A program made the position numbers and the translations under genes. Positions 16,554 to 61,058 of a stretch of 64,000 nt of DNA are shown here, in pieces. Location: NCBI RefSeq assembly GCF_030384885.1, contig NZ_CP128615.1; one strand, 5' to 3'. The notes beneath the pieces were generated by a model. The model made no database searches and was not told the origin of the DNA. It saw only the letters and a list, made by a program, of their open reading frames with translations. Position 1 is the stretch's first letter. Every line of letters starts with the position of its first letter. This DNA comes from Escherichia coli (GTDB lineage Bacteria; Pseudomonadota; Gammaproteobacteria; Enterobacterales; Enterobacteriaceae).

Positions 16554-19500
16554 TTACTTAATTCTTACTCGGTCGCCAGCTTTGACCGCAGCAATCAGCT
16601 GCTCTCTTAAAGCGGCAAGATAGGCATCAACTTCGGCTTCACTTTCAATGAATCCGGTTGTTACTGACTTAGCCATGGCATCGGTTGAGTTAATCGTTAC
16701 GGTACGTTTTGCAACCGGCTGTGGCTGCACTGGTTCAGAGGCTGGCTCAGGTGCTGGAGCTGCTTTACCGGCTTTCGCTGCTTCCTCTTCGCGTGTCTGC
16801 TGTTCGAGTTCACGACGTCTTTGCTCAGCTTCAGCTTTTTTGCGTTGATCTTCGATAAAGCCATTCAGCAACTCATAGGCTTCGTCCTCGTAACCTTCCG
16901 CTTCAGTTTGCTCACTGATAATTTGTGGTATTGAAGAGGTCGCTTCAATACGCTGTCTGCACATTTGTAACGGGCGCAGTGCTTGGTTCTGTAATTCAGA
17001 CGGTGCATGAGCTTCAGCTAGCGCTTCTTTTACACGTCCGATGCGCAGATCAACACGCTCTAAGGCATGAGTGCGTTTTTCTTCAACCAATGTTGAGTTA
17101 ATTTTTGCCACCTGCTCGATAAGCGGATTAATGTGGCGCAGCTGCTCATACGGCGAGGGCATATTGTAAATGCGTTCTAATTCAGTGAGCGCTTTTAATG
17201 CTTCACTGTCTTTTTCTAACGCAGGTCTATTGGCCTTAAACTTCTCGTTCAATGCGCCAGCAAGGGCTTGCCAAGTTTGAAATTGGCTATTGTAGAAGTC
17301 ATCAAGATCCTCAAAGTCCTCAGCAAACTCTTCAAGGGCATCAGCGTTTTCTAAGAATCGGGTGATAAGAGCGAAGCTTGAAGTTTGCTCAAGAATACCC
17401 GCGACCAATGCAAGACCATCGTCAATTTGAGATTTACCTGGGAAATGGCCTGTCTGTGACTTGGTTCTGAATGATTTAAGCTCTTCATTCCAAGCCAGTA
17501 ATTCATCGCGCACTAATTCGTAGAGCTCCTTTTCACCAGAGCCGGTAAAGGTTTTTGAAAAGATCTCTTTAACAAGACCAGCAGCCTTTTTGATTTGGCG
17601 CTCGTCATGTTGCCTGATTTTATGTACACGGATCTCACCGCGTTTACGCACGCTGGTAAACGGCTCGTAAGCTTTTTTCAACGCCAGATCTGTGCCCTGG
17701 GTACTAAAAGATAACTTTCCAGCCAAGCCCAGCCTTGCAGTGAGCAATAAGATTTCATTGTCTGGCCAGCCATACGGGCGCTTGCCGAAGTGGGCAACGA
17801 TGTCACGTAAGTAAACAGGCTCATTACGCTCGACTTTTAGCGTTACGTACTGCTCAACCTCACGCGTAGCTTCTGGGTTACATTCATCCGCTTGAAGATC
17901 CAGTCCAATCTGAGCAATATCATCAGCAACAAGTACGGCCTGTAGCTCACGCAAAACTTCACCAGGCGTCGCCTTGAGCATGTTCAATTTAGCGAAGGTG
18001 TTTTCGATAACGTATTTGTATGCTTCTTCGACGATGGCACTTGGCGTTGCTGATTTCTTCGGTAGTTTTGTGCCGATAGCGTAAACGTCAGCCTCTGCAA
18101 ACAAAGCTTCAAAATCCGTTCTTAAGCGTTTTTCACGCTCAATATTTTCCATCTGCTTTTCGCGGAGAAGGTGTTCTTGCTCTGGTCGCTGTCCTGAATT
18201 TTGTTTTAAGAATCGGTCAGTTTTTATAAAGGTTGTCAGGTCATCCCAAAGACGTTTATGTTCGCCCAGCTTGACGAGCACGCACCCATCAGCCTCAAGC
18301 GTATGATTGATGCAGGCTTGATCGTGGGAGTAATTTTCAAAGTGCGAATCCAAAGGTGAAATGACTTTAATGACTAGATCTTCCAGCGTGGTGCCATCTT
18401 TTGGATGACCATTGCAAAAACGGCTCACCGCAAAGTCTTGCTTATTAATCGGGTATCGATAGGCACGATTACCTTTCAAAATACCGTCAAATACGATTGC
18501 TGAAAGCTTGTTAGAGACCTCTGACATTTCAACGTCAGTGTGGCGGATCTCGTTTTCAATCTCTTTTTCTTCGTTGGTCAGGAAGATAAATTCATCACCA
18601 TTACGCGCAATCAGCAATTGGCGTTCAAGACGATTCAAGCTCTCTTCAATTTGTTTACGCAGCGCAATTTTATCTGCATCGATTCGATCAATTGACAGCG
18701 TCACAAGGTTGTCTAGTGTGCTTTTGACAACGTCCACATAACGGATCAAGAAAAGAGTTTTTAGAATCTTGCCATCGAATTCTGTTAAGGAATCCAACTC
18801 ACAGGCTTGGTCAATCGTTCGCTTAACCGCTGGCTCCAAAAAGCTTTCAATCGGTGCATAGAAACTGTAAAACGGGATTAACACATCAAGGCCAGAGTCC
18901 TTCATCTGTTTTGCAGCTGATTGGAAAGCATCAAGTAATGAACGCTCACCCATGGCTAAGTGCTTACCCGTCGCGCCTTTTGTTCGAATTGACTCAAACA
19001 CTTTTTGAACCAGCGTGTAGTGGTAAGGCACAAACGGATAGTTGTCCACGAAAGACGGAGCGTCGGTGTAGCCCTTTAGAGACGCAGTTGTCGTTTTATC
19101 AAATGTCAGCTGGTTACGAAGAATGTCGCCCTTTTCAGCAAACACATCGATGAGGTGTGTACGAGCTTCTTCCGTTTTGGACAACAAACGCTTTTGAATA
19201 ACTTCCGAGGTATTCGAGCTCGACAGCTGCAAGCGGGTACTAAAACGCCCTTGAATTTTAGAGAAGTCCTCGCCATCGCGCTTATCCATACCACCAATGG
19301 CAGCATCAATGTCTGCCTGAGAGGTAACAACGACCCAAGCTCTGCCACCACAATATGTGCCAAGATCTTCAGTAATGGTCTGAAGCTTCAACATCATTTG
19401 TGTGTTCTTACCGATAAACTGACCGACTTCATCGACTAAGAAAAGAAGGTTACGATCTCCAGTTCGATCTAAGTATTCATTAACCCACTTACAGAAGTTT

Positions 19501-20231
19501 CGGATATCTAGCGGGAAATTGTTTTCAACCTGTTCAACCCACGCTTTGGCAGACTCTAATGATTGCTCACTGGCATGAGCGAGTGCTTCTGAAAGTTCGT
19601 CTCGATAGAAGTCATAGGCGTCACGCTCCTTTTCCCAAGTTGATTGAGTCAACTCAGCAAATTTGTCCTTGAAAGACATGTATTGATTACGCTTATCAAG
19701 CTCGCGTTCTAAATGCGCAATGTGAGGAAAATCAGCGCAGTATCCTACACGCTCATTAAAGACTTTGAGGAAGACCTTAAGAATGGCATTTTCTCGGTCA
19801 TCCGTATTGGCTCGTGAATCGATGTTAAAAAGAATAACATCAGTGTCTTTGGTAACAGCGTTTTGGATATCGGCCAACAGCATGGCATCGTTGATTTTGT
19901 CTTTAAAAAACTCAAATGCTTGACGGCCTTGGCCATCCTTTTCGACAGACTTATTTTCGAGGAGGTAAGACAAAATTTTCAGGAAGTGAGACTTACCCGA
20001 ACCAAAGAAGCCAGAGATCCACACACCAATTTTTCCTGACATTGATGCGCCACTTTGCGTCACAGATGGAACGTAAGCCTCAAAGAAAGCGCGAAAATGT
20101 CGATCTAGCTCTCGGGTTACAACATACTCATCAAGTTCGACATACACACTGTCATTGTCTTTCTGTTCCGCTTTAACAACGCCGTTAATATCACGCGTCA
20201 ACTTCTTGGAAAAAATCTGTTCAATTTTCAT
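16554..20231 (-). CDS. brxC: BREX BrxC (large P-loop ATPase)
   Basis: 1225-aa ORF; Walker A GFFGSGKSH; position downstream of brxB. Confidence 0.9.
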   Translation of the reverse strand: MKIEQIFSKKLTRDINGVVKAEQKDNDSVYVELDEYVVTRELDRHFRAFFEAYVPSVTQSGASMSGKIGVWISGFFGSGKSHFLKILSYLLENKSVEKDGQGRQAFEFFKDKINDAMLLADIQNAVTKDTDVILFNIDSRANTDDRENAILKVFLKVFNERVGYCADFPHIAHLERELDKRNQYMSFKDKFAELTQSTWEKERDAYDFYRDELSEALAHASEQSLESAKAWVEQVENNFPLDIRNFCKWVNEYLDRTGDRNLLFLVDEVGQFIGKNTQMMLKLQTITEDLGTYCGGRAWVVVTSQADIDAAIGGMDKRDGEDFSKIQGRFSTRLQLSSSNTSEVIQKRLLSKTEEARTHLIDVFAEKGDILRNQLTFDKTTTASLKGYTDAPSFVDNYPFVPYHYTLVQKVFESIRTKGATGKHLAMGERSLLDAFQSAAKQMKDSGLDVLIPFYSFYAPIESFLEPAVKRTIDQACELDSLTEFDGKILKTLFLIRYVDVVKSTLDNLVTLSIDRIDADKIALRKQIEESLNRLERQLLIARNGDEFIFLTNEEKEIENEIRHTDVEMSEVSNKLSAIVFDGILKGNRAYRYPINKQDFAVSRFCNGHPKDGTTLEDLVIKVISPLDSHFENYSHDQACINHTLEADGCVLVKLGEHKRLWDDLTTFIKTDRFLKQNSGQRPEQEHLLREKQMENIEREKRLRTDFEALFAEADVYAIGTKLPKKSATPSAIVEEAYKYVIENTFAKLNMLKATPGEVLRELQAVLVADDIAQIGLDLQADECNPEATREVEQYVTLKVERNEPVYLRDIVAHFGKRPYGWPDNEILLLTARLGLAGKLSFSTQGTDLALKKAYEPFTSVRKRGEIRVHKIRQHDERQIKKAAGLVKEIFSKTFTGSGEKELYELVRDELLAWNEELKSFRTKSQTGHFPGKSQIDDGLALVAGILEQTSSFALITRFLENADALEEFAEDFEDLDDFYNSQFQTWQALAGALNEKFKANRPALEKDSEALKALTELERIYNMPSPYEQLRHINPLIEQVAKINSTLVEEKRTHALERVDLRIGRVKEALAEAHAPSELQNQALRPLQMCRQRIEATSSIPQIISEQTEAEGYEDEAYELLNGFIEDQRKKAEAEQRRRELEQQTREEEAAKAGKAAPAPEPASEPVQPQPVAKRTVTINSTDAMAKSVTTGFIESEAEVDAYLAALREQLIAAVKAGDRVRIK

Positions 20232-20249
20232 TCGGGAGGCTCCCTGCTC

Positions 20250-20843
20250 TTAATTTTTTTTACCGTCTTCAGGCACAAGCTTGAAGGCGCGATAGTAGTT
20301 TTTAGATTCGATCATGCCGAAAGGATGCAAATCCCTTCCGCTATATTCACCCGGATAGAAAAGCACTAATGGCGTGCTACCCATAACGTCTTGCAGAGCA
20401 CTAAGTAACTCATGTCCTCGGATAAGAGGCCACGCACTGCCTAAGCCTGACAGCAACACAAACTCAAGTTCTGATGGCTTATATTTGTCCGCGATATACC
20501 TTGCCACTTTCTCTTGGCTCAGAGGCCCGGCTAGTGTTTTTCGAAGGCCATCAACACCGACTTGCAATTCACGCTGGCAAGCTCGGTCGAAAAGGCCTCG
20601 CTCCTCAAGCATATCTATCAAGACTTCAAAAATATTGAGATGGACAAAGCGGTAACCACGCTTGTTGAGTTTTTCGTCAACGTGCTTAATGTGCTCTCGT
20701 ACAAGCAGTTCATACTTGGCTGGATAGTCAAATACCCAAAATCCAATTTCATTGCCCAAGCCATCGTTTTTCAAAAACTTAGGGCTTTCAATTCGTTCCA
20801 GTATCAGATCAAGCCTGGTCTGAAGAGCCTTCATATTGTGCAC
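20250..20843 (-). CDS. brxB: BREX BrxB (DUF1788)
   Basis: 197-aa ORF immediately upstream of brxC, overlapping brxA; size and position typical. Confidence 0.8.
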   Translation of the reverse strand: MHNMKALQTRLDLILERIESPKFLKNDGLGNEIGFWVFDYPAKYELLVREHIKHVDEKLNKRGYRFVHLNIFEVLIDMLEERGLFDRACQRELQVGVDGLRKTLAGPLSQEKVARYIADKYKPSELEFVLLSGLGSAWPLIRGHELLSALQDVMGSTPLVLFYPGEYSGRDLHPFGMIESKNYYRAFKLVPEDGKKN

Positions 20844-21430
20844 TCCATTACCTCAATCAAATCTTCCCGGCCCAGACGAACTAACCAGTCTTTAACTTCT
20901 GGCATTAGGTAAACAGGTTGTATTTTCTTTGTCCTGCTATCACTCAGGTAGCCACTATCAACCAGTGCCTTAATTGCGTTGTTACCCATTTTTTTGACAG
21001 TTGAGTCAGAAAAACCGCCAAGCTCAGCATATGCCCGCACTCTCGTGTCATAAAACTCAGACCATGCATCAGCGGTTAAAGAGGGTTTATAGGTGCGACG
21101 AGCTTCGGCTAAGGTAAGTCGCATAAAATAAGCGACAACCGGAGAATGAATGAGTAATGACATCATCAGCATTTGGACATAGGCACGTTCACTCGCGGCT
21201 AAAAGATCAGTCATAAACTCATCACCCAGGCCTTCAATACGCCAACGGATTGTTCTGGCATAACGAATAGCCGTCTGACCGGATTTTTTCTGAAGAACAT
21301 TTTGCTCAACGATCAGCGACTTCCACTCATCTTCTGGAAGTTTTTTCAATAGCGATTCTGCGATTATTCTAGATTCAGTTATCAATAAACTGCCTCCGAT
21401 AAGATCGCCTAAATATTCTTTTATATTCAT
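20831..21430 (-). CDS. brxA: BREX BrxA (DUF1819)
   Basis: 199-aa ORF first structural gene of operon; size and position typical. Confidence 0.8.
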   Translation of the reverse strand: MNIKEYLGDLIGGSLLITESRIIAESLLKKLPEDEWKSLIVEQNVLQKKSGQTAIRYARTIRWRIEGLGDEFMTDLLAASERAYVQMLMMSLLIHSPVVAYFMRLTLAEARRTYKPSLTADAWSEFYDTRVRAYAELGGFSDSTVKKMGNNAIKALVDSGYLSDSRTKKIQPVYLMPEVKDWLVRLGREDLIEVMECTI

Positions 21431-21439
21431 AAATTCATC

Positions 21440-22366
21440 TCACGATTCGCTATATCCAGGAGCGAGTGCAGCATTGTCAACGCCGTATAGTGCTTCTGGA
21501 TTTTTAAGTGCTAAATGGAACTCTCGCCCATTGCTCTTACAATTCTTTGAACAATCGATATTCCATAAACGCAGTAAATATCCAGCGAACGCAGCTCTTA
21601 TCTCTACACGCAACCTATTGTTTTCCATTGCGTAGTCCATCGATACAGCTTCTGGATGTGCTAGTTTTGGATGAGGTATCAGCTCTAGCTCAACGATTCG
21701 GTTCCATTGCTTATCCCACTGAAGAGTCTCAACTTCGTCGTTAACCTCATCCTCTAACAACTCAACTTCACTTATTCTGGTTAAAACAAAATCCCTAAAT
21801 TCTCTAAGCTTTCTATCGAATGCTCGGACATGCCATCTCAAGCCATTGTCAATCAGGGTATGAGGAACTATTTGCCTGCTCCCATGACCACTCGACAATG
21901 AGGTGTACTCAATATTAATCACAGCGCGCTTATGTATGGCTTCACTAATAGCCGCTACAACTTCCAATTTCGGCTTATTGAGATGGAATGGTGCTTCACA
22001 AGCCATAGGTGGCCTGGCCTTGCCAAGAAAGCCATCACCGAACCCTTGGCTTATCGTCGCAAGAGTTCGAACAACGTCATAATCAAACAACGGCTGGAAT
22101 GCGCTCGTCTTCAAGTGCACTCTGCGCTTTTCGTCATACATAACGTTGTTAGGAGCCAACTCTTTGTACCGCGCAAAATCTTGTGTTGCCACAGACGGCG
22201 CTACGCTAAATCGCTCGGTTAAATAACTACGCCCAGCTTCACCTTTAAATAACAAAGTGAAATCAATATGAGCGAGTCGTTCTCTCTGTGCTTGGCTAAG
22301 CTCTTCAAGTCCAGTGTTGTCTTGCACTGTCAGCCTCTCAATCCATCTGGGACAAGCCCTAATCAT
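21440..22366 (-). CDS. brxR: BrxR-type WYL-domain transcriptional regulator
   Basis: 308-aa ORF upstream of brxA; WYL-like core (RWHVRAFDRKLREFRDF); true start may be an internal Met. Confidence 0.75.
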   Translation of the reverse strand: MIRACPRWIERLTVQDNTGLEELSQAQRERLAHIDFTLLFKGEAGRSYLTERFSVAPSVATQDFARYKELAPNNVMYDEKRRVHLKTSAFQPLFDYDVVRTLATISQGFGDGFLGKARPPMACEAPFHLNKPKLEVVAAISEAIHKRAVINIEYTSLSSGHGSRQIVPHTLIDNGLRWHVRAFDRKLREFRDFVLTRISEVELLEDEVNDEVETLQWDKQWNRIVELELIPHPKLAHPEAVSMDYAMENNRLRVEIRAAFAGYLLRLWNIDCSKNCKSNGREFHLALKNPEALYGVDNAALAPGYSES

Positions 22367-23902: not shown

Positions 23903-24959
23903 GGCTTTGTTGAATAAATCGAACTTTTGCTGAGTTGAAGGATCAGATCACGCATCCTCCCGACAACACAGACCATTCCGTGGCAAAGCAAAAGTTCAGA
24001 ATCACCAACTGGTCCACCTACAACAAAGCTCTCATCAACCGTGGCTCCCTCACTTTCTGGCTGGATGATGGGGCGATTCAGGCCTGGTATGAGTCGGCAA
24101 CGCCTTCATCACGGGGAAGGCCCCAGCGCTATTCTGACCTTGCCATCACGACTGTGCTGGTCATTAAACGCGTATTCAGGCTGACCCTGCGCGCTGCGCA
24201 GGGCTTTATTGATTCCATTTTTACACTGATGAATGTTCCGTTGCGCTGCCCGGATTACAGCTGTGTCAGCAGGCGGGCAAAGTCGGTTAACGTCAGTTTC
24301 AAAACGTTCACCCGGGGTGAAATCGCGCATCTGGTGATTGATTCCACCGGGCTGAAGGTCTTTGGTGAAGGCGAGTGGAAAGTCAAAAAGCATGGCCAGG
24401 AACGCCGTCGTATATGGCGAAAGTTGCATCTGGCAGTTGACAGCAACACACATGAAATCATCTGTGCAGACCTGTCGCTGAACAATGTGACGGACTCAGA
24501 AGCCTTCCCGGGTCTTATCCGGCAGACTCACAGAAAAATCAGGGCAGCATCGGCAGACGGCGCTTACGACACCCGGCTCTGTCACGATGAACTGCGGCGT
24601 AAGAAAATCAGCGCGCTTATCCCTCCCCGAAAAGGTGCGGGTTACTGGCCCGGTGAATATGCAGACCGTAACCGTGCAGTGGCTAATCAGCGAATGACCG
24701 GGAGTAATGCGCGGTGGAAATGGACAACAGATTACAACCGTCGCTCGATAGCGGAAACGGCGATGTACCGGGTAAAACAGCTGTTCGGGGGTTCACTGAC
24801 GCTGCGTGACTACGATGGTCAGGTTGCGGAGGCTATGGCCCTGGTACGAGCGCTGAACAAAATGACGAAAGCAGGTATGCCTGAAAGCGTGCGTATTGCC
24901 TGAAAACACAACCCGCTACGGGGGAGACTTACCCGAAATCTGATTTATTCAACAAAGCC
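23903..24959 (+). mobile_element. IS903-like (IS5 family) copy 1, 1057 bp, intact
   Basis: 18-bp IRs GGCTTTGTTGAATAAATC at both ends; no 9-bp target duplication. Confidence 0.9.
23935..24903 (+). CDS. IS903-like DDE transposase
   Basis: 322-aa ORF ...[28 protein letters not shown]... Confidence 0.9.
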
Positions 24960-35666: not shown

Positions 35667-35751
35667 ATGTGCGGACGTTTTTCTCAGTCTATGACGCGGG
35701 AAGAGTATCTTTCTCTCCTCGCCAATGAAGCCGATCGAAATATTGCCTACG
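35667..35751 (+). pseudogene. SRAP/YedK-like (DUF159) gene, first 28 codons only, truncated by IS903
   Basis: MCGRFSQSMTREEYLSLLANEADRNIAY with RBS GGAGGT; runs into the IS903 IR at 35752. Confidence 0.5.
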
Positions 35752-35912
35752 GGCTTTGTTGAATAAATCAGATTTCGGGTAAGTCTCCCCCGTAGCGGGT
35801 TGTGTTTTCAGGCAATACGCACGCTTTCAGGCATACCTGCTTTCGTCATTTTGTTCAGCGCTCGTACCAGGGCCATAGCGGGGTCGTTTGCGGGAGGGGG
35901 CGGAATCCTACG

Positions 35913-38798
35913 CTAAGGCTTTGGCCAGCGATATTCTCCGGTGAGATTGATGTGTTCCCATCCGAGCGGCGAAACATGGGCCAAGAGATCGGGCGATAGC
36001 AGCTTTCCATCGCGTTTCTGGTTTGCAACGACCTCGCCGAGCTTCATGGTGTTCCAGAAGATGATGATGGCGGCGAGCAGATTCATGCCGGCGATGCGGT
36101 AATGCTGGCCTTCGGCGGAACGGTCGCGGATTTCACCGCGGCGGTGGAAGCTGATTGCCCGCTTCAGCGCATGATGAGCTTCGCCTTTGTTGAGCCCGAT
36201 CTGGGCACGCCGTTGGAGTTCGGCATCCAGAATCCAGTCGATCATGAACAGGGTGCGCTCGACGCGACCGACTTCCCGCAGGGCTGTCGCGAGCTCGTTC
36301 TGCCGCGGATAGGAGGCGAGTTTCCGCAGAATCTGGCTTGGCGCGACGGTCCCGGCAGCAATGGTGGCGGCGATGCGCAGGATGTCGGGCCAATTGCGCT
36401 CGATCATGGCTTGGTTGACCTTTCCGCCGATCAACGCTCGCAGGTGCGCCGGGGCGGCCGACGGATTGAACGCGTAGAGCCGTTTGGATGGCAGGTCGCG
36501 GATGCGCGGAGCGAACCGGTAGCCGAGAATGGCACATGCGGCAAAGACGTGATCGGTGAAGCCGCCCGTGTCGGTGAACTGCTCGCGGATATGGCGTCCA
36601 GCATCGTTCATCAGCAGGCCATCGAGGATGTAAGGCGCTTCGCTTGCCGTTGCAGGAATCACCTGGGTTGCGAACGGCGCATATTGGTCGGAGACGTGGC
36701 TATAGGCTTTCAGGCCCGGGGTATTGCCATATTTCGCGTTGACCAGGTTCATGGCCTCACCTTGCTCTGTAGCGACGAAGAACTGTCCGTCGCTCGAAGC
36801 CGACGTGCCCATGCCCCAGAACCGGGCCATGGGTAACGCTGCCTGTGCCTCGACCACCATGGCCAGCGCCCGGTCATAGGCTTCGCCCTCGACATGCCAC
36901 CGTCCAATGCGGATCAATTCCCAGAAGGTGTGGGTGTTTGTCGCATCCGCCATTTTGCGCAAGCCGAGGTTGATCCCTTCCGCCAAGATAACGTTCATTA
37001 GCCCGATCCGGTCAGCGCAGGGTGCTCCTGTGCGCAGATGGGTGAACGCTTCGGTGAAGCCGGTCGCCGCATCCACCTCCAGCAGGAGATCGGTGATGCG
37101 CGTGGGCGGGATCTGCTTGTAGAGATCGAGCACCAGATCTTCGGCGCCTGTCGGCGCGGCGGCTTCGAGTTTCTCGATATGCAGAACGCCGTTTTCAATC
37201 GACCCGCCCGGGATCGTGCCTGCGCGAGCGGCACGGCCAAGCTCGCGCAACCGCATGTCGAGGCGAGCTTGCCGGTCTGCCAGCCATTCCTCCGGCCGCA
37301 ATGGCACAGCGAGACGACCGCCTTCCGCGATGGATTGTGCCGGAACGAGTGCGTGTTTCAGATCGCCATAGCGCCGGGACCTAGTAAGCCAGACATCTCC
37401 GGAGCGGAACGCATCGCGCAGATGGAACAGCACCGCGATCTCCCATAGGCGAGCGTCGCCAGCCCTCTGGGCCCGAAGGTGGCGATGCCATTTCGAGCTG
37501 GGCCGCAAGAAGCTGGTCATCGCGGCATCGTTCAAACCGGTACGAAGGGCCGTCACCGCTTCCAGAAGCGGCAGTGCAACGGGCGCAGCTCGCAGATCGA
37601 GCAGGCGCAACATGCGTGGAGCGTATCGGCGGAAGCGGTGATAACCGTCGAGCACATGATTGAGCGGATCGTCGGCCATGGTGGCGGTCAGCCTGGTTGC
37701 CATTGCAACAAGGGTTTTTAAGCCGTCCCACCCTGACCCACTCGCGATGACATCGCCCAGCGGCTGGCCATCATCCTGTGCATCGACCAGGGCGCCCCCG
37801 ATCTCGGCGAAGGATTTCAGGGTGTCACGCACCACCCCCGCTTCGTCTGCGACCTTTGCATGGCAAATACGCTCCGAAGCACGGTAGAGACGGCCGACGA
37901 TCCGGTCGTGGGTTTCGACCACTGCGTCGGCCAACATCGCCTGCCATTCCGAGACGCAAACAGCCAAGATCGCAAGCCGCCTGTCCTCCGGGAGATCGCG
38001 CATGCCGTCGGCATAATACCGTTCACCCTGCCTGCGCAGACGAGTCACCCGATGGGCAGGAACGCCGGCAAGCAGATCCTCGGGGAGATCGATGCGTTGC
38101 AGATATTCGAGCCGGTCGAGCAGCCGGTTGGCCGACGAAGAGTTCGAGCCAGGCTCGAACTGGCGCAGCCACACAAAACGGGTCACCCGATCATCAGCCG
38201 TCTCCTCGAGCAATGCCAGCAACTGTTCTCGGATCGACATAGGCAGCCGACTGGCGATCCTCGTCTCGATGCGTCGCTCGGCATCGACGAGAGCCGCGGC
38301 ACAAAGCCGCTCGATCGTGGATGTCGCGGGAAGGACAGTGCGGGTGCGTCGGCACTCGGCTACGAAGCGACGGGCGATATCCTCGTTCGACACCGCCATC
38401 TCGGCTTCTCGGAACAACCATTCCTTCAGCTCGCTCGCACCACGTCCGGAGAAGGTGCGGAAGCCGTAGAGCCCCCGTAACTCGGCAAGATGCTCGTGCC
38501 GTGTTTCCTCGCGGGCAGCATAGTCTACGAGATCGTCGGCACCCAGGCCAAGCTGCGCTCCGATAAATTCGATGACCTCTGCAGGGATCAGTTCGCCTGG
38601 AGCCAGCACCCGGCCGGGATAGCGCAGGACACACAATTGCAGGGCGAAGCCGAACCTGTTGTGAGCGCGCCGACGCAGCCTGATATGCCCAAGGTCTTCA
38701 TCACTCAGCGTATAGTGCTTGAGCAAATCCGTCTGTGAAGTCGGCAAGCGCAACAGCGCGTCTTTCTGCCGATCGGTTAGAGTGACGCGACGCGGCAT
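35913..38798 (-). CDS. tnpA: Tn3-family transposase TnpA (Tn5393)
   Basis: 961-aa ORF; C-terminal ...[17 protein letters not shown]. Confidence 0.9.
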   Translation of the reverse strand: MPRRVTLTDRQKDALLRLPTSQTDLLKHYTLSDEDLGHIRLRRRAHNRFGFALQLCVLRYPGRVLAPGELIPAEVIEFIGAQLGLGADDLVDYAAREETRHEHLAELRGLYGFRTFSGRGASELKEWLFREAEMAVSNEDIARRFVAECRRTRTVLPATSTIERLCAAALVDAERRIETRIASRLPMSIREQLLALLEETADDRVTRFVWLRQFEPGSNSSSANRLLDRLEYLQRIDLPEDLLAGVPAHRVTRLRRQGERYYADGMRDLPEDRRLAILAVCVSEWQAMLADAVVETHDRIVGRLYRASERICHAKVADEAGVVRDTLKSFAEIGGALVDAQDDGQPLGDVIASGSGWDGLKTLVAMATRLTATMADDPLNHVLDGYHRFRRYAPRMLRLLDLRAAPVALPLLEAVTALRTGLNDAAMTSFLRPSSKWHRHLRAQRAGDARLWEIAVLFHLRDAFRSGDVWLTRSRRYGDLKHALVPAQSIAEGGRLAVPLRPEEWLADRQARLDMRLRELGRAARAGTIPGGSIENGVLHIEKLEAAAPTGAEDLVLDLYKQIPPTRITDLLLEVDAATGFTEAFTHLRTGAPCADRIGLMNVILAEGINLGLRKMADATNTHTFWELIRIGRWHVEGEAYDRALAMVVEAQAALPMARFWGMGTSASSDGQFFVATEQGEAMNLVNAKYGNTPGLKAYSHVSDQYAPFATQVIPATASEAPYILDGLLMNDAGRHIREQFTDTGGFTDHVFAACAILGYRFAPRIRDLPSKRLYAFNPSAAPAHLRALIGGKVNQAMIERNWPDILRIAATIAAGTVAPSQILRKLASYPRQNELATALREVGRVERTLFMIDWILDAELQRRAQIGLNKGEAHHALKRAISFHRRGEIRDRSAEGQHYRIAGMNLLAAIIIFWNTMKLGEVVANQKRDGKLLSPDLLAHVSPLGWEHINLTGEYRWPKP

Positions 38799-38923
38799 AC
38801 ATGTTCCTTTTTCAAAATCTGATAGCGTTCAAGACGCTTTGTTTATGAAGCTGGTTGAGATACATTTCCAGAGGTCAATGCAATCGTGGCCGAAGCGCCG
38901 CCTCAAACCAACGTTTGTGATAC

Positions 38924-39538
38924 ATGCTGATCGGATATGCCCGCGTCTCCAAAGCCGATGGCTCGCAGTCTCTCGACCTGCAGCACGACGCCTTGCGCGC
39001 CGCAGGTGTCGAACGGGACAATATCTATGATGATCTTGCTTCCGGCGGTCGTGATGATCGCCCTGGCTTGACTGCCTGCCTCAAGTCATTGCGTGACGGC
39101 GATGTGCTGGTGGTCTGGAAGCTCGATCGCCTCGGACGATCGCTTGCCCATCTGGTCAACACGGTGAAGGAGCTGTCAGACCGCAAGATCGGCCTGCGGG
39201 TTCTGACTGGAAAGGGCGCTCAGATCGACACCACGACTGCGTCCGGTCGCATGGTGTTCGGAATCTTCGCCACCTTGGCCGAGTTCGAGCGGGATCTGAT
39301 CCGAGAGCGCACCATGGCGGGTCTCGCCTCCGCGAGAGCGCGCGGTCGCAAGGGCGGACGAAAATTCGCGCTCACCAAAGCTCAGGTGCGTCTCGCGCAA
39401 GCCGCCATGGCCCAGCGCGATACTTCAGTTTCCGATCTCTGCAAGGAACTCGGCATCGAGCGCGTCACTCTCTACCGATATGTCGGTCCCAAAGGCGAGC
39501 TCAGAGACCATGGAAAGCATGTTCTCGGACTTACGTAG
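38924..39538 (+). CDS. tnpR: serine resolvase TnpR (Tn5393)
   Basis: 204-aa ORF MLIGYARVSKADGSQSLDLQ... Confidence 0.9.
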   Translation: MLIGYARVSKADGSQSLDLQHDALRAAGVERDNIYDDLASGGRDDRPGLTACLKSLRDGDVLVVWKLDRLGRSLAHLVNTVKELSDRKIGLRVLTGKGAQIDTTTASGRMVFGIFATLAEFERDLIRERTMAGLASARARGRKGGRKFALTKAQVRLAQAAMAQRDTSVSDLCKELGIERVTLYRYVGPKGELRDHGKHVLGLT

Positions 39539-39581
39539 TGGACTTGCCTCGGTTTCGTTCCGGTCTTTTTGAGAGCATTAT

Positions 39582-39878
39582 TTGTTATCAAGGAGACCAT
39601 ATATGTCATTAAAGCATAGTGATGAATTTAAGCGTGATGCAGTTCGCATAGCACTCACTAGTGGCTTAACACGCCGTCAAGTTGCGTCAGATTTAAGTAT
39701 TGGGCTTTCCACGCTTGGGAAATGGATCGCATCAATTTCCGATGAAACTAAAATTCCTACCCAAGACACTGATCTTCTGCGTGAGAATGAACGTTTACGC
39801 AAAGAGAACCGTATCCTTCGGGAGGAGAGGGAGATATTAAAAAAGGCAGCAATATTTTTCGCAGTACAAAAGCTGTGA
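39582..39878 (+). CDS. IS1133 transposase OrfA
   Basis: 98-aa ORF with HTH. Confidence 0.8.
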   Translation: MLSRRPYMSLKHSDEFKRDAVRIALTSGLTRRQVASDLSIGLSTLGKWIASISDETKIPTQDTDLLRENERLRKENRILREEREILKKAAIFFAVQKL

Positions 39879-40732
39879 GATTTCAGTTTATTACGGATTA
39901 CCGTGGCTCTCTCTCACGTTCACGCATATGTCGTTTGATGGGCGTAACAGATCGTGGTTTACGTGCATGGAAACGCCGTCCTCCATCACTGCGCCAGCGT
40001 CGTGATCTTATACTTCTAGCGCATATACGTGAGCAGCATCGGTTGTGTTTGGGGAGCTATGGTAGGCCGCGTATGACAGAAGAGTTGAAAGCGCTGGGCC
40101 TGCAGGTTGGGCAGCGTCGGGTTGGACGTTTGATGCGCCAGAATAACATTACAGTTGTTCGAACGCGTAAATTCAAACGGACAACGGATAGTCATCATAC
40201 CTTCAACATTGCACCGAACCTATTAAAACAAGACTTTAGCGCAAGCGCACCCAACCAGAAATGGGCAGGCGATATCACTTATGTTTGGACCAGAGAAGGA
40301 TGGGTCTATCTTGCTGTTATCCTTGACCTGTATTCCCGTCGCGTGATTGGCTGGGCAACAGGTGATCGATTAAAGCAGGATCTTGCATTAAGGGCACTGA
40401 ATATGGCGTTGGCTTTACGCAAACCACCACCGGGTTGTATTCAACACACAGACCGTGGGAGCCAATATTGCGCTCATGAATATCAAAAGCTACTGCTCAA
40501 ACATCAATTGCTGCCGTCCATGAGCGGGAAAGGCAATTGTTTTGATAACTCCGCAGTAGAAAGCTTCTTTAAATCATTAAAGGCTGAGTTGATTTGGCGC
40601 AGACACTGGCAAACAAGGCGAGATATTGAGATTGCAATCTTCGAATATATAAATGGCTTTTATAATCCACGCCGAAGACATTCAACACTCGGCTGGAAAT
40701 CGCCGGTGGCATTTGAGAAAAAAGCCGCTTAA
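39875..40732 (+). CDS. IS1133 transposase OrfB (DDE/rve)
   Basis: 285-aa ORF; 4-bp overlap with orfA. Confidence 0.8.
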   Translation: MRFQFITDYRGSLSRSRICRLMGVTDRGLRAWKRRPPSLRQRRDLILLAHIREQHRLCLGSYGRPRMTEELKALGLQVGQRRVGRLMRQNNITVVRTRKFKRTTDSHHTFNIAPNLLKQDFSASAPNQKWAGDITYVWTREGWVYLAVILDLYSRRVIGWATGDRLKQDLALRALNMALALRKPPPGCIQHTDRGSQYCAHEYQKLLLKHQLLPSMSGKGNCFDNSAVESFFKSLKAELIWRRHWQTRRDIEIAIFEYINGFYNPRRRHSTLGWKSPVAFEKKAA

Positions 40733-40838
40733 AATGAGAGATAGACCGGAACACAACCGGTGCAAGTCCATAGCAACTCGTTTCTTTTCGCAGGTTGAGC
40801 CACCTCCGCGCTTCATCAGAAAACTGAAGGAACCTCCA

Positions 40839-41642
40839 TTGAATCGAACTAATATTTTTTTTGGTGAATCGCATTCTGACTGGTTGCCTGTCAGAGGCGG
40901 AGAATCTGGTGATTTTGTTTTTCGACGTGGTGACGGGCATGCCTTCGCGAAAATCGCACCTGCTTCCCGCCGCGGTGAGCTCGCTGGAGAGCGTGACCGC
41001 CTCATTTGGCTCAAAGGTCGAGGTGTGGCTTGCCCCGAGGTGATCAACTGGCAGGAGGAACAGGAGGGTGCATGCTTGGTGATAACGGCAATTCCGGGAG
41101 TACCGGCGGCTGATCTGTCTGGAGCGGATTTGCTCAAAGCGTGGCCGTCAATGGGGCAGCAACTTGGCGCTGTTCACAGCCTATCGGTTGATCAATGTCC
41201 GTTTGAGCGCAGGCTGTCGCGAATGTTCGGACGCGCCGTTGATGTGGTGTCCCGCAATGCCGTCAATCCCGACTTCTTACCGGACGAGGACAAGAGTACG
41301 CCGCAGCTCGATCTTTTGGCTCGTGTCGAACGAGAGCTACCGGTGCGGCTCGACCAAGAGCGCACCGATATGGTTGTTTGCCATGGTGATCCCTGCATGC
41401 CGAACTTCATGGTGGACCCTAAAACTCTTCAATGCACGGGTCTGATCGACCTTGGGCGGCTCGGAACAGCAGATCGCTATGCCGATTTGGCACTCATGAT
41501 TGCTAACGCCGAAGAGAACTGGGCAGCGCCAGATGAAGCAGAGCGCGCCTTCGCTGTCCTATTCAATGTATTGGGGATCGAAGCCCCCGACCGCGAACGC
41601 CTTGCCTTCTATCTGCGATTGGACCCTCTGACTTGGGGTTGA
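40839..41642 (+). CDS. strA: aminoglycoside 3''-phosphotransferase APH(3'')-Ib (streptomycin resistance)
   Basis: 267 aa from TTG start (NRTNIFFGESHSDWLPVRGGESGDFVFRRGDGHAFAKIAP...); the ORF-track start at 40653 is an upstream extension. Confidence 0.9.
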   Translation: MNRTNIFFGESHSDWLPVRGGESGDFVFRRGDGHAFAKIAPASRRGELAGERDRLIWLKGRGVACPEVINWQEEQEGACLVITAIPGVPAADLSGADLLKAWPSMGQQLGAVHSLSVDQCPFERRLSRMFGRAVDVVSRNAVNPDFLPDEDKSTPQLDLLARVERELPVRLDQERTDMVVCHGDPCMPNFMVDPKTLQCTGLIDLGRLGTADRYADLALMIANAEENWAAPDEAERAFAVLFNVLGIEAPDRERLAFYLRLDPLTWG

Positions 41643-42478
41643 TGTTCATGCCGCCTGTTTTTCCTGCTCATTGGCACGTTTCGCAACCTGTTCTCATTGC
41701 GGACACCTTTTCCAGCCTCGTTTGGAAAGTTTCATTGCCAGACGGGACTCCTGCAATCGTCAAGGGATTGAAACCTATAGAAGACATTGCTGATGAACTG
41801 CGCGGGGCCGACTATCTGGTATGGCGCAATGGGAGGGGAGCAGTCCGGTTGCTCGGTCGTGAGAACAATCTGATGTTGCTCGAATATGCCGGGGAGCGAA
41901 TGCTCTCTCACATCGTTGCCGAGCACGGCGACTACCAGGCGACCGAAATTGCAGCGGAACTAATGGCGAAGCTGTATGCCGCATCTGAGGAACCCCTGCC
42001 TTCTGCCCTTCTCCCGATCCGGGATCGCTTTGCAGCTTTGTTTCAGCGGGCGCGCGATGATCAAAACGCAGGTTGTCAAACTGACTACGTCCACGCGGCG
42101 ATTATAGCCGATCAAATGATGAGCAATGCCTCGGAACTGCGTGGGCTACATGGCGATCTGCATCATGAAAACATCATGTTCTCCAGTCGCGGCTGGCTGG
42201 TGATAGATCCCGTCGGTCTGGTCGGTGAAGTGGGCTTTGGCGCCGCCAATATGTTCTACGATCCGGCTGACAGAGACGACCTTTGTCTCGATCCTAGACG
42301 CATTGCACAGATGGCGGACGCATTCTCTCGTGCGCTGGACGTCGATCCGCGTCGCCTGCTCGACCAGGCGTACGCTTATGGGTGCCTTTCCGCAGCTTGG
42401 AACGCGGATGGAGAAGAGGAGCAACGCGATCTAGCTATCGCGGCCGCGATCAAGCAGGTGCGACAGACGTCATACTAG
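41642..42478 (+). CDS. strB: aminoglycoside 6-phosphotransferase APH(6)-Id (streptomycin resistance)
   Basis: 278 aa MFMPPVFPAHWHVSQPVLIADTF...; overlaps strA stop. Confidence 0.9.
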   Translation: MFMPPVFPAHWHVSQPVLIADTFSSLVWKVSLPDGTPAIVKGLKPIEDIADELRGADYLVWRNGRGAVRLLGRENNLMLLEYAGERMLSHIVAEHGDYQATEIAAELMAKLYAASEEPLPSALLPIRDRFAALFQRARDDQNAGCQTDYVHAAIIADQMMSNASELRGLHGDLHHENIMFSSRGWLVIDPVGLVGEVGFGAANMFYDPADRDDLCLDPRRIAQMADAFSRALDVDPRRLLDQAYAYGCLSAAWNADGEEEQRDLAIAAAIKQVRQTSY

Positions 42479-42584
42479 ATATCAAGCGACTTCTCCTATC
42501 CCCTGGGAACACATCAATCTTACCGGAGAATATCGTTGGCCAAAGCCTTAGCGTAGGATTTCGCCCTCTCCCGCAAACGACCCC

Positions 42585-43486
42585 ATAGCCTCCGCAACCT
42601 GACCATCGTAGTCACGCAGCGTCAGTGAACCCCCGAACAGCTGTTTTACCCGGTACATCGCCGTTTCCGCTATCGAGCGACGGTTGTAATCTGTTGTCCA
42701 TTTCCACCGCGCATTACTCCCGGTCATTCGCTGATTAGCCACTGCACGGTTACGGTCTGCATATTCACCGGGCCAGTAACCCGCACCTTTTCGGGGAGGG
42801 ATAAGCGCGCTGATTTTCTTACGCCGCAGTTCATCGTGACAGAGCCGGGTGTCGTAAGCGCCGTCTGCCGATGCTGCCCTGATTTTTCTGTGAGTCTGCC
42901 GGATAAGACCCGGGAAGGCTTCTGAGTCCGTCACATTGTTCAGCGACAGGTCTGCACAGATGATTTCATGTGTGTTGCTGTCAACTGCCAGATGCAACTT
43001 TCGCCATATACGACGGCGTTCCTGGCCATGCTTTTTGACTTTCCACTCGCCTTCACCAAAGACCTTCAGCCCGGTGGAATCAATCACCAGATGCGCGATT
43101 TCACCCCGGGTGAACGTTTTGAAACTGACGTTAACCGACTTTGCCCGCCTGCTGACACAGCTGTAATCCGGGCAGCGTAGCGGAACGTTCATCAGAGAAA
43201 AAATGGAATCAATAAAGCCCTGCGCAGCGCGCAGGGTCAGCCTGAATACGCGTTTAATGACCAGCACAGTCGTGATGGCAAGGTCAGAATAGCGCTGAGG
43301 TCTGCCTCGTGAAGAAGGTGTTGCTGACTCATACCAGGCCTGAATAGCTTCATCATCCAGCCAGAAAGTTATGGAGCCACGGTTGATGAGGGCTTTATTG
43401 TAGGTGGGCCAGTTGGTTATTTTGAACTTTTGCTTTGCCACGGAACGGTCTGCGTTGTCGGGAAGATGCGTGATCTGATCCTTCAA
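42585..43486 (-). pseudogene. IS903-like transposase, C-terminus replaced by read-through into Tn5393 IR
   Basis: ORF identical to the other copies up to ...VAEAM, then diverges (GSFAGEGEILR) at the Tn5393 junction. Confidence 0.8.
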
Positions 43487-43857
43487 CTCAGCAAAAGTTC
43501 GATTTATTCAACAAAGCCCATTCAGTCCTCAATTTGTGCATTTTTTAAACGAAAAAAGGGTGTCTAATACGGTGAAATCATAGTATTACCAAAGTAATAA
43601 ATAAAAAGTTATTTAAATCAGTAATTTAGATTTGATTTGTAATACCTGGGTAATACCGCAGCATGGCTAAATTTTGTTTTTTTTCTTTTAAATCAGTGCG
43701 ATAGCGTGATTTATCACGCTGCGTTAGGTGTATAGCAGGTTAAGGGATAAAAAATCATCTTTTTTTGGTAGGGCGATCTCCGTAGGTTAAGGGGCATTTG
43801 GCTAAAAAGCGTCCTATTCTTTGATGGTCATGCTTGCATGACCATCTGAGCAACCAA

Positions 43858-44006
43858 AAACTACAGATAAACTACAGATAAACTACAAAAAACGTTTTGC
43901 CTTAGTGTTGTAAGACTACAAATAGACTACAATAAAACTACAAATAAACTACAAAAAACGTGACAGACTACAAATAGACTACAATAAAACTACAGATAAA
44001 CTACAA
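43858..44006. repeat. array of ~11-bp ACTACA(A/G)ATA direct repeats (iteron- or centromere-like)
   Basis: at least 12 copies of (A/G)ACTACA(A/G)AT(A) in 150 bp, preceded by a perfect palindrome GATGGTCATG-cttg-CATGACCATC at 43821-43846. Confidence 0.6.
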
Positions 44007-44066
44007 AACTCGATTGACCCCTTCTTACGAGTGTTGTAGAGTCATTTTCATACAACGGAGGGGGTT

Positions 44067-44246
44067 ATGAATAAACCAGCAGATCTGAAACCCCGCAACT
44101 TATCGGCTGCTGTCAGATTGCGCCTAAATGAAATCGAGAACTGGCTGGACAGAGGGCTAACGCGGCATGAAATTGCTGAAATCCTCGACAGCGAATACAG
44201 CTTTTCGGTAACAGCCAAAGGGCTTGAGATGGATGGCACTGTATAG
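44067..44246 (+). CDS. small hypothetical protein (59 aa), possible DNA-binding regulator
   Basis: strong RBS GGAGGGGG 6 bp upstream; MNKPADLKPRNLSAAVRLRLNEIENWLDRGLTRHEIAEILD...; below the ORF-track length cutoff. Confidence 0.45.
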   Translation: MNKPADLKPRNLSAAVRLRLNEIENWLDRGLTRHEIAEILDSEYSFSVTAKGLEMDGTV

Positions 44247-44465
44247 AACGCGGCAAAACCGAAAAAATGTATTGCACAATACGCATGATAAGAGTAGCGC
44301 GAAGGGTGCAGCGGAAAGTGTATTGCACAATACACAACCGTCTGAGCCTGAAGTGCAGGAAAGTAAAAAAGCAGAGAGTCCCGGCATTATTGATAAAGAA
44401 TTCTTCAAGAAAATCGGTGAGAATTTCGACCCTAAGAAGTTCAACAAAAAATTCTGAGGTGATTT

Positions 44466-44540
44466 ATGAAAGTAGCGGTAATTAATTACAGTGGCAGTGT
44501 TCGTAAAACCTTAATTTCATCTTACCTGTTAGCCCCGCGC
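44466..44540 (+). pseudogene. 5' fragment of a gene (MKVAVINYSGSVRKTLISSYLLAPR), truncated by IS903 copy 3
   Basis: RBS GAGGTGA then ATG; the N-terminus resembles the start of a ParA-like NTPase but the Walker A is not canonical. Confidence 0.35.
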
Positions 44541-45597
44541 GGCTTTGTTGAATAAATCAGATTTCGGGTAAGTCTCCCCCGTAGCGGGTTGTGTTTTCAG
44601 GCAATACGCACGCTTTCAGGCATACCTGCTTTCGTCATTTTGTTCAGCGCTCGTACCAGGGCCATAGCCTCTGCAACCTGACCATCGTAGTCACGCAGTG
44701 TCAGTGAACCTCCGAACAGCTGTTTTACCCGGTACATCGCCGTTTCCGCTATCGAGCGACGGTTGTAATCTGTTGTCCATTTCCACCGCGCATTACTCCC
44801 GGTCAGCCGCTGATTCGCAACAGCACGGTTACGGTCTGCATATTCACCGGGCCAGTAACCCGCGCCTTTTCGGGGCGGGATAAGCGCGCTGATTTTCTTA
44901 CGCCGCAGTTCATCGTGACAGAGTTGGGTGTCGTAAGCGCCGTCTGCCGATGCTGCCCTGATTTTTCTGTGAGTCTGCCGGATAAGACCCGGGAAGGCTT
45001 CTGAGTCCGTCACATTGTTCAGCGACAGGTTTGCACAGATGATTTCATGTGTGTTGCTGTCAACTGCCAGATGCAACTTTCGCCATATACGACGGCGTTC
45101 CTGGCCATGCTTTTTGACTTTCCATTCGCCTTCACCAAAGACCTTCAGCCCGGTGGAATCAATCACCAGATGCGCGATTTCACCCCGGGTGAACGTTTTG
45201 AAACTGACATTAACCGACTTTGCGCGCTTGCTGACACTGGTGTAATCCGGGCAGCGCAACGGAACATTCATCAGTGTAAAAATGGAATCAATAAAACCCT
45301 GTGCAGCCCGCAGGGTCAACCTGAACACGCGTTTAATGACCAGAACGGTGGTGATGGCGAGATCAGAATAGCGCTGAGGTCTTCCCCGTGATGAAGGCGT
45401 TGCCGACTCATACCAGGCCTGAATAGCTTCATCATCCAGCCAGAAAGTTATGGAGCCACGGTTGATGAGGGCTTTATTGTAGGTGGGCCAGTTGGTTATT
45501 TTGAACTTTTGCTTTGCCACGGAATGGTCTGCGTTGTCGGGAAGATGCGTGATCTGATCCTTCAACTCAGCAAAAGTTCGATTTATTCAACAAAGCC
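44541..45597 (-). mobile_element. IS903-like copy 3, 1057 bp, intact
   Basis: 18-bp IRs at both ends; same orientation as copy 2. Confidence 0.9.
44597..45565 (-). CDS. IS903-like DDE transposase
   Basis: 322-aa ORF nearly identical to copy 1. Confidence 0.9.
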   Translation of the reverse strand: MKDQITHLPDNADHSVAKQKFKITNWPTYNKALINRGSITFWLDDEAIQAWYESATPSSRGRPQRYSDLAITTVLVIKRVFRLTLRAAQGFIDSIFTLMNVPLRCPDYTSVSKRAKSVNVSFKTFTRGEIAHLVIDSTGLKVFGEGEWKVKKHGQERRRIWRKLHLAVDSNTHEIICANLSLNNVTDSEAFPGLIRQTHRKIRAASADGAYDTQLCHDELRRKKISALIPPRKGAGYWPGEYADRNRAVANQRLTGSNARWKWTTDYNRRSIAETAMYRVKQLFGGSLTLRDYDGQVAEAMALVRALNKMTKAGMPESVRIA

Positions 45598-59349: not shown

Positions 59350-59407
59350 TCAACGCCACGATGTTTGACCGTTATTTGCCATTTTCATGCCCGCTAAGAT
59401 ACTTTCG

Positions 59408-60191
<784 letters not shown>

Positions 60192-60195
<4 letters not shown>

Positions 60196-60833: not shown

Positions 60834-61020
60834 ACAACCACCGAATTTGATCCCTGAAAACTGTCAGCGCTGCGAGGACGAAGAAAGTATTACGGCTAAA
60901 GCCGTAATACCTCCCCATCCAGCTTCAAGCTATGTAGAAACTTATGTGGGTAGAGCAGTCCCGACAGGGCAGTACCGCATTGACAGGCCGTCAGGGCCAC
61001 TTACGAGCTTGTATGACAAG

Positions 61021-61058
61021 GGGGGCCGTCTGGATATAGCGAATTATTGTACGGTAAG
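61021..61058. repeat. Tn3-family-like 38-bp inverted-repeat sequence, isolated
   Basis: GGGGGCCGTCTGGATATAGCGAATTATTGTACGGTAAG, about 80 percent identical to the IR at 34791-34828. Confidence 0.5.

Follow-up and report, generated by a model that had tools for sequence, protein, structure and literature searches.

The DNA analysed here, which we call the window, is a stretch of 64,000 nucleotides from an Escherichia coli contig (NZ_CP128615.1), and positions are counted from its first letter. Between positions 35752 and 43518 lies an element of the IS903 group, IS903 being the insertion sequence (IS) that flanks Tn903, split into arms of 128 bp and 934 bp around a 6705-bp insert. The left arm (35752–35879, minus strand) carries the inverted repeat (IR) at the C-terminal end of the transposase, with the last 21 native codons and the stop, and is 100% identical to the matching part of two other IS903 copies in the window, A and C. 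The right arm (42585–43518, minus strand) carries the IR at the N-terminal end and codons 1–286; an identical arm is present in one of the loci we compared (L010). The last 5 bp of the left arm (35875–35879) and the first 5 bp of the right (42585–42589) both read ATAGC. An earlier, sequence-only reading had given the outer coordinates and the three lengths, all of which hold on recomputation, and had placed a direct ATAGC repeat at both junctions, where we also find it. Automated annotation hides the nesting of one element in the other: all that RefSeq gives for the two arms is a partial 'transposase', with no name, and a partial 'hypothetical protein'.

Removing the insert together with one ATAGC leaves an IS of 1057 bp (128 + 934 - 5) with perfect 18-bp terminal IRs (GGCTTTGTTGAATAAATC, 18/18). 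Its open reading frame encodes a DDE transposase of 307 residues that matches the IS5-family profile NF033579 over positions 1–289 of 289 at 354.6 bits and has D121, D193 and E259, along with the Y252, R255 and K266 of the Y-R-E-K signature. RefSeq labels an uninterrupted copy with no differences from it 'IS5-like element IS903B family transposase'. Compared with the interrupted IS, the window's two further copies show 25 and 40 base differences, distributed as a mosaic (96–98% identity), with copy A identical to the reconstruction over its first 716 bp. The interrupted IS lacks the 9-bp target duplication of IS903 (its flanks read TTGCCTACG and CATTCAGTC), as do copies A and C, and in a search that sought to trace inversions or deletions we found no matching pair of 9-bp flanks among copies A, B and C and a 63-bp remnant. 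The element's own history must therefore include recombination or an adjacent deletion. The missing duplication points to an element that was rearranged later, or that came in through recombination or deletion, and is not decisive for the identity of the IS.

The insert (35880–42584, plus strand) has the organization of a Tn3-family unit transposon, the IS1133-bearing form of Tn5393. It is bounded by long terminal IRs of 81 bp, one at the tnpA end (35880–35960, plus strand) and the other at the strB end (42504–42584, minus strand), the first identical at 77 of 81 positions to the reverse complement of the second. The sequence with which these repeats begin, GGGGTCGTTTGCGGGAG, is found nowhere in the window except at the element's two termini, against 0.00 occurrences expected by chance. 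Just inside the left end, tnpA (35913–38798, minus strand) encodes a Tn3-family transposase of 961 residues (NF033527, 1022 bits against a cut-off of 500) in which the Pfam domain DDE_Tnp_Tn3 is covered in full (1–389 of 389) and is accompanied by DUF4158; identical copies are filed in RefSeq as WP_001138082.1. Transcribed divergently from it is tnpR (38924–39538, plus strand), a serine resolvase of 204 residues (Pfam Resolvase, 153 bits). From its position between the divergent genes and from family knowledge, the 125-bp spacer separating them (38799–38923) would be expected to hold res, and the tnpA/tnpR/res architecture of Tn5393 has been published (PMC10333595, PMC11783820).

The TAG stop codon of tnpR (39536–39538) doubles as the left copy of the 3-bp target duplication of IS1133, an element of 1232 bp (39539–40770, plus strand) with imperfect terminal IRs of 28 bp and TAG on either side. 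Curated models assign its reading frames, orfA (39582–39878) and orfB (39875–40732), to the IS3 family, and RefSeq names an identical copy 'IS3-like element IS1133 family transposase, programmed frameshift'. Judging by its family, we infer that IS1133 may contribute promoter activity to the resistance genes that follow, strA and strB. The former, aph(3'')-Ib (40839–41642, plus strand; 267 residues), scores 637.7 bits with NF032895 (cut-off 600), and the latter, aph(6)-Id (41642–42478, plus strand; 278 residues; WP_000480968.1 in identical copies), scores 385.9 bits with NF012171, the APH(6)-I model (cut-off 325). The pair adjoins the right IR of the transposon. The earlier reading had called the insert Tn5393, with long terminal IRs and with tnpA, tnpR, IS1133, strA and strB as its genes; the curated models bear out the gene content, and size, gene order and the match to copies at independent sites agree with the name. 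Taken together, the 6705-bp length, the published architecture and the finding of 0–1 differences from copies that many records annotate as Tn5393 components lend indirect support to the assignment to the IS1133-bearing form.

A consequence of the insertion is a hybrid transposase. The IS903 reading frame now runs from a GTG start at 43441 to a stop at 42548–42550 (42548–43441, minus strand) and encodes 297 residues, 286 of them native and the remainder, GSFAGEGEILR, read from the strB-end IR of Tn5393, which also supplies the stop. Read-through into this IR at the cost of about 20 codons had been proposed; the exact figures are 21 of 307 native residues lost and 11 foreign codons gained. The altered protein retains D121, D193, E259 and the Y-R-E-K signature and lacks the last 10 positions of the family profile, so that NF033579 is matched over positions 1–279 of 289, against 1–289 in the native form. 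With those C-terminal positions gone, it is probably impaired. The domains of the IS903 transposase were reportedly studied by Tavakoli and colleagues in 1997.

To look for the site without its insert, we searched PLSDB with a virtual ancestor, the locus with the transposon removed, and 134 records covered at least 80% of the query, at least 19 of them doing so at 100%. At this very locus, the IncR plasmid NZ_LR890753 of Klebsiella pneumoniae carries the IS in uninterrupted form: the IS matches at every position (0/1057 differences), its outer flanks are those of the window, and with Tn5393 taken out the window can be aligned to this plasmid across 4481 bp at 99.87%. Because its flanks are the same, the rearrangement around the IS must predate the arrival of Tn5393. 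ATAGC is present once in the compared locus L009, as it is in the uninterrupted copies A and C. A duplication of 5 bp is what is expected of the Tn3 family. Matching 5 bp by chance alone has a probability of 1/1024, and coincidence is excluded by the exact restoration of a 1057-bp IS together with a natural empty site that differs from it at none of 1057 positions. The sequence-only reading had spoken of a bona fide transposition into the IS, and the duplication and the exact empty site support this.

The same transposon has also moved elsewhere. A Salmonella plasmid (SARB44, CP074224) carries at an independent site a Tn5393 that is base-for-base identical to ours, and identical copies are found in plasmids of E. 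coli, Salmonella and Enterobacter. Among the loci we compared, three (L003, L004 and L006) have a Tn5393 with 0 differences from the window, and three (L005, L006 and L007) are independent insertions with the same ends and 5-bp duplications of their own, the duplicated sequences being TATAA, CTATA and ATTCA; the transposon is 6704 bp long in L005, 6705 bp in L006 and 6705 bp, with 1 difference, in L007. Finding the same 6705-bp unit at several independent sites, between intact duplications, shows that the IS1133-bearing form is one that actively transposes.

We are thus confident that an IS903-group element was interrupted by Tn5393 through transposition, on a multiresistance plasmid of IncR type. 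The events are as follows. A 1057-bp IS of the IS903 group (IS5 family) already lay in an IncR accessory region, between a truncated SOS-response-peptidase gene and a stbA fragment, when Tn5393 entered it and duplicated the 5-bp target ATAGC. From what is known of the family, this would have followed the replicative Tn3 pathway, with a cointegrate made by TnpA and then resolved by TnpR at res. The plasmid gained streptomycin resistance in the process.

Repeated elements, IS903 and Tn5393 included, are notorious for causing mis-assembly, and one might ask whether the nesting is a mis-join of repeats. That is almost inconceivable: the left junction recurs at 100% identity in at least 178 independent PLSDB plasmids, among them the published IncR plasmid pKPS30, and in 9 complete E. 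coli genomes, and the right junction recurs in about 100 PLSDB plasmids, including tigecycline-resistance plasmids with tmexCD1-toprJ1. NZ_MT136605 and NZ_CP073944 each contain both junctions, around a Tn5393 that shows 0 differences and has ATAGC at either end. (pKPS30 is said to have been described by Compain and colleagues in AAC in 2014.) A different objection is that homologous recombination or IS-mediated rearrangement placed two partial IS903 copies around Tn5393, the ATAGC repeat being coincidental. IS903 is certainly abundant in the region (A, C and the remnant of 63 bp, none with a 9-bp duplication), the copies are mosaic relative to one another, so recombination among them clearly occurs, and a Tn5393 lacking a duplication exists elsewhere (L014). 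We nevertheless regard this account as extremely improbable. The two arms are co-oriented and exactly complementary, and they restore a 307-residue reading frame; joined, they are indistinguishable over all 1057 bp from a natural IS with the same locus and flanks; and the 5-bp repeat agrees with those at three other places where this transposon has inserted.

Transposition into the IS could also have involved a different form of the transposon. An IS1133-free Tn5393, of the Tn5393c or Tn5393a kind, might have hit IS903, and homologous recombination with a second Tn5393 might then have brought in the IS1133-bearing interior. In NZ_OL348377 (P1-tmexCD), the ATAGC/IS903 right junction is that of the window, yet the Tn5393 there is missing exactly positions 39537–40772, that is, IS1133 and one TAG; this plasmid also has in common with the IncR plasmid NZ_MT136605 a downstream breakpoint, at which window position 43259 is joined to 34686. 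A review, moreover, notes that Tn5393 may originally have been IS-free (PMC10333595). Against this stand the identical 6705-bp IS1133-bearing units found with intact duplications at several independent sites, and the state of the tmexCD1 context, which has been heavily rearranged by IS26 and by insertion of the efflux cluster, so that the interior is at least as likely to have been exchanged in that setting. An IS1133-free founder therefore seems to us unlikely, and either order of events leaves the main conclusion, transposition of Tn5393 into IS903, unchanged.

A segment of 7767 bp now has an intact 18-bp IS903 IR at each end, and one can imagine this segment behaving as an IS903-bounded streptomycin-resistance transposon, moved in trans by the two intact IS903 copies nearby on the plasmid or by the 297-residue transposase, were that active. 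If so, strA-strB would have gained a second, Tn3-independent route of movement. We think this very doubtful. None of the best matches in 5,426 complete E. coli genomes was a unit that combined new outer flanks with a 9-bp duplication, and the PLSDB matches inspected yielded one candidate only for movement of the whole unit, a false lead. In H76 (NZ_AP025548), considered as a moved 7.8-kb unit because the outer flank at its IS903 end looked different, Tn5393 lies within the mcp gene of Tn1721 and has no duplication, and what matched IS903 there is a separate copy. A group of IncHI2 matches (H68–H72), considered as the whole nested structure in a new context, turned out on alignment to have the reverse nesting, with IS903B inside the IS1133 of Tn5393.

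The nested insertion is real but ordinary. It is already known, in that its junctions are not new and stand in more than 100 public plasmid sequences; our search of the open-access literature found no paper with wording for an interrupted IS903. The two elements and the way they work have been in the textbooks since the 1980s and 1990s, and with known elements and a junction in well over 100 public plasmids, the interest for basic biology is small. The structure is chiefly of use for marking a lineage. Together, the ATAGC/IS903 junction and the IncR empty site link the IncR accessory region to the strAB–IS903 segment that lies beside the tmexCD1-toprJ1 cluster, and a link of this kind can help to reconstruct how those multiresistance regions were assembled. 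No IS26 ends are present anywhere in the window, which is why Tn5393 is intact here and truncated in many related plasmids.

How does the locus compare with systems already described? Tn5393 itself reportedly goes back to work by Chiou and Jones in 1993 on plasmid pEa34 of Erwinia amylovora (GenBank M96392/M95402). The reference element is 6.7 kb long, in the order tnpA, res, tnpR, IS1133, strA and strB (PMC10333595). The window copy, at 6705 bp, has the same gene order, long IRs and a 5-bp duplication and, set against M96392 by its published description, differs only in its host replicon, which is enterobacterial and IncR-type, and in its target, the inside of IS903. The reconstructed IS likewise agrees with IS903/IS903B (IS5 family, IS903 group) in its 1057 bp, perfect 18-bp IRs, 307-residue DDE transposase and RefSeq IS903B-family label, and departs from it in being interrupted by Tn5393, in the altered C terminus of its transposase and in lacking a 9-bp duplication. 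Tn5393i of pYR1 and the IncHI2 plasmid NZ_MK461930 nest the same two types of element but in reverse, with IS903/IS903B inside Tn5393; in NZ_MK461930, it lies within IS1133, at about window positions 39800–39809. Another related arrangement is the 'IS903B-Tn5393' module drawn beside tnfxB1-tmexCD1-toprJ1 in Klebsiella megaplasmids (PMC10611489). There, as in NZ_OL348377, Tn5393 lacks IS1133 and the RND efflux cluster lies on its tnpR side, IS26 events have separated off the left junction, and the IS903 arm breaks off at window position 43259, where an inverted mcp fragment follows, whereas the junction of the right IR of Tn5393, ATAGC and the IS903 arm is the same as ours at 100% identity.

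Direct reading of both junctions shows an IS903-type terminal repeat, GGCTTTGTTGAATAAATC, beginning at 35752 and its inverted partner ending at 43518. Between them lie 128 bp of IS sequence, a 6705-bp insert (35880-42584) and another 934 bp of IS. ATAGC directly abuts the insert on either side (35875-35879 and 42585-42589), and removing the insert with one ATAGC gives back a 1057-bp IS with perfect 18-bp inverted repeats and a single 307-aa open reading frame. The insert itself ends in 81-bp inverted repeats, identical at 77 of 81 positions, the first 17 bases of which occur nowhere else in the window (chance expectation 0.00). The sequence-only reading had given these junctions and lengths, and had asked that the ATAGC duplication be re-inspected; read directly and then measured, all its numbers held, and the duplication is there at both junctions.

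The insert is Tn5393. Its tnpA (35913-38798, minus strand) encodes a full-length Tn3-family transposase of 961 aa (NF033527, 1022 bits; Pfam DDE_Tnp_Tn3 matched end to end), and the divergent tnpR (38924-39538) a 204-aa serine resolvase (Pfam Resolvase, 153 bits). There follows a 1232-bp IS3-family element with orfA and orfB and 28-bp imperfect inverted repeats (39539-40770), an identical copy of which is named IS1133 by RefSeq. The TAG on each side of it (39536-39538 and 40771-40773) is its 3-bp target duplication; the left one doubles as the tnpR stop codon, so IS1133 inserted precisely where the resolvase gene ends and left its protein unchanged. Streptomycin genes complete the element: strA, or APH(3'')-Ib (40839-41642; 637.7 bits to a curated model with a cut-off of 600), and strB, or APH(6)-I by a curated protein model (41642-42478). 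Published Tn5393 is 6.7 kb long and carries tnpA, tnpR, res, IS1133 and strA-strB, which is the architecture and size of the insert (PMC10333595). Its boundaries are independently confirmed by three unrelated insertion sites, each with its own 5-bp duplication: a Salmonella SARB44 plasmid (CP074224; 6705 bp, 0 differences, TATAA), an Enterobacter plasmid (NZ_CP082281; 6705 bp, 1 difference, CTATA) and the E. coli ECOR24 plasmid NZ_LT985301 (6704 bp, 1 bp shorter, its differences not counted; ATTCA).

We searched PLSDB with a virtual ancestor composed of the left flank and the uninterrupted IS, and obtained 134 records at 80% coverage or more, at least 19 of them 100% identical. With Tn5393 taken out, the window aligns to the IncR plasmid NZ_LR890753 of Klebsiella pneumoniae at 99.87% over 4481 bp, from the left flank through the IS and stbA spacer to the next IS903 copy (copy C). 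The IS of this plasmid shows 0 differences in 1057 positions from the reconstructed, Tn5393-interrupted element (copy B), and it is the exact empty site for the insertion. Its outer flanks, TTGCCTACG and CATTCAGTC, are the same as here, so the absence of a 9-bp IS903 duplication is older than the arrival of Tn5393. Tn5393 occupies the site, identical in sequence and with ATAGC at each end, in the IncR plasmids NZ_MT136605 (Raoultella) and NZ_CP073944 (E. coli). The left junction runs from the truncated SOS-peptidase gene through the 128-bp arm into the Tn5393 repeat; at least 178 PLSDB plasmids carry it at 100% identity, and 9 complete E. coli genomes have it too. Among the plasmids is the published IncR plasmid pKPS30 (NC_023314), in which IS26 cuts Tn5393 shortly past the repeat. 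About 100 plasmids contain the right junction as one unbroken stretch. In several plasmids of E. coli and Salmonella the whole right arm, the stbA spacer and the start of copy C follow one another without interruption; one of these is an IncX1 plasmid with strB truncated by IS26.

The structure is best explained by one replicative transposition event that put Tn5393 into an IS903 already in place. The duplication, the restored target and the empty site were seen directly, as was the match to identical copies that have moved elsewhere, and all of these support the transposition that the sequence-only reading had proposed. By what is known of the Tn3 family, TnpA would form a cointegrate, TnpR would resolve it at a res site within the 125-bp spacer between tnpA and tnpR, and expression of strA-strB would be driven by IS1133.

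What of the interrupted IS? Its native transposase starts at a GTG (43441), is 307 aa long, and is broken after codon 286. The predicted loss of about 20 codons with read-through into the Tn5393 repeat was borne out: the final 21 residues are swapped for GSFAGEGEILR, read from the terminal repeat at the strB end (42504-42584) to a stop at 42548-42550. The fusion keeps D121, D193 and E259 and the Y252-R255-E259-K266 signature. The native protein matches an IS5-family model over 1-289 of 289 positions (354.6 bits) and the fusion scores 346.0 bits, losing the final 10 profile positions; the Pfam DDE_Tnp_1 match shrinks from 199/200 to 195/200. These shortened matches put the break right at the conserved domain's C-terminal edge, and the activity of the fusion may plausibly be impaired. 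Both inverted repeats of copy B are intact, so the 7767-bp unit that they bracket, Tn5393 included, could in principle be moved by the transposase of IS903 copy A or C in the window. No class of hit with an IS arm and Tn5393 but a changed outer flank turned up in the best matches from 5,426 E. coli genomes. The sole PLSDB candidate for movement of the unit to new outer flanks proved a false lead.

Three complete copies of the IS903 group are present in the window: A (23903-24959, opposite in orientation to B), the interrupted B, and C (44541-45597, oriented as B); a 63-bp end remnant lies at 3547-3609. Copies A and C each carry ATAGC once, at the position matching the insertion point. Copy A equals reconstructed copy B over the first 716 bp, within which the insertion point falls, and the 25 differences between them are grouped at the opposite end. 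Differences among the copies number 25-43 and cluster in blocks; the copies are mosaics of each other, a pattern that suggests repeated homologous exchange among them. No 9-bp duplication surrounds A, B or C, and comparing flanks from copy to copy gave no matching pair.

All of this sits in a multiresistance region of an IncR-type plasmid. Its BREX type 1 anti-phage system is complete (brxA/B, brxC, pglX, pglZ, brxL and associated genes; ~6326-22366, minus strand) and is followed by IS1, IS903 copy A, a Tn1721/TnAs1 module (pecM, tet(A), tetR, tnpA, tnpR, mcp; ~25.8-34.5 kb), a Tn3-family fragment, an SOS-peptidase remnant and IS903::Tn5393. The BREX region is 100% identical to the E. coli plasmids NZ_CP024857 and NZ_CP080127. 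The outer end of IS903 truncates the SOS-response-associated peptidase gene, of which just 28 codons survive from its start (MCGRFSQS...; 35668-35751); at least 178 plasmids and the empty-site plasmids share this truncation. Beyond IS903::Tn5393 come an AT-rich spacer of about 1 kb (43519-44540, between copies B and C), in which near-identical records annotate a gene for the plasmid stabilization protein StbA, copy C, and an IncR backbone with IS1, a group II intron reverse transcriptase, umuDC, parBA, repB, resD and vagCD. The directly repeated IS903-stbA-IS903 arrangement is conserved in IncR plasmids. No IS26 terminal repeats occur anywhere in the 64-kb window, which is unusual in an enterobacterial multiresistance region, and this is probably why Tn5393 is still intact here. 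Related plasmids have this Tn5393 cut short by IS26 at various points. The window's ends (1-2572 and 59350-64000) lie outside the coverage of the best IncR matches; the left one carries an AAA-ATPase-like frame (3-1565) weakly similar to defence ATPases and then a 340-aa frame, the right one an IS21-family transposase fragment (60192-60833) and a 213-aa frame (62601-63242).

Tn5393 and IS903 are both classical elements, and IS903::Tn5393 is a known kind of structure with many copies in public data. RefSeq labels its IS903 arms only as anonymous partial pseudogenes, and in the open-access literature we found no paper that explicitly reports this duplication of ATAGC inside IS903. IS903::Tn5393 is chiefly useful as a marker of lineage for IncR-derived resistance regions. 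The reverse nesting also exists: in the IncHI2 plasmid NZ_MK461930 (7905-8962), IS903B lies inside the IS1133 of Tn5393 (window ~39800-39809), where the flanking alignments overlap by 10 bp, consistent with a 9-bp duplication. That arrangement is seen in a group of ~275-kb IncHI2 plasmids of pig E. coli. Around the tigecycline resistance cluster tnfxB1-tmexCD1-toprJ1, the adjacency of IS903 and Tn5393 has been drawn as 'IS26-hp-IS903B-Tn5393-(toprJ1-tmexD1-tmexC1-tnfxB1)-hp-hp-IS26' (PMC10611489). In the plasmid P1-tmexCD (NZ_OL348377) this adjacency is the same ATAGC/IS903 junction as in the window: 9425-14427 matches window 38569-43259, and the cluster adjoins this Tn5393. Its Tn5393 precisely lacks IS1133 and one TAG (window 39537-40772), whereas that of the window has IS1133. 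A breakpoint joining window 43259 to inverted 34686 is common to NZ_OL348377 and the Raoultella IncR plasmid NZ_MT136605, and points to a common ancestry of these modules.
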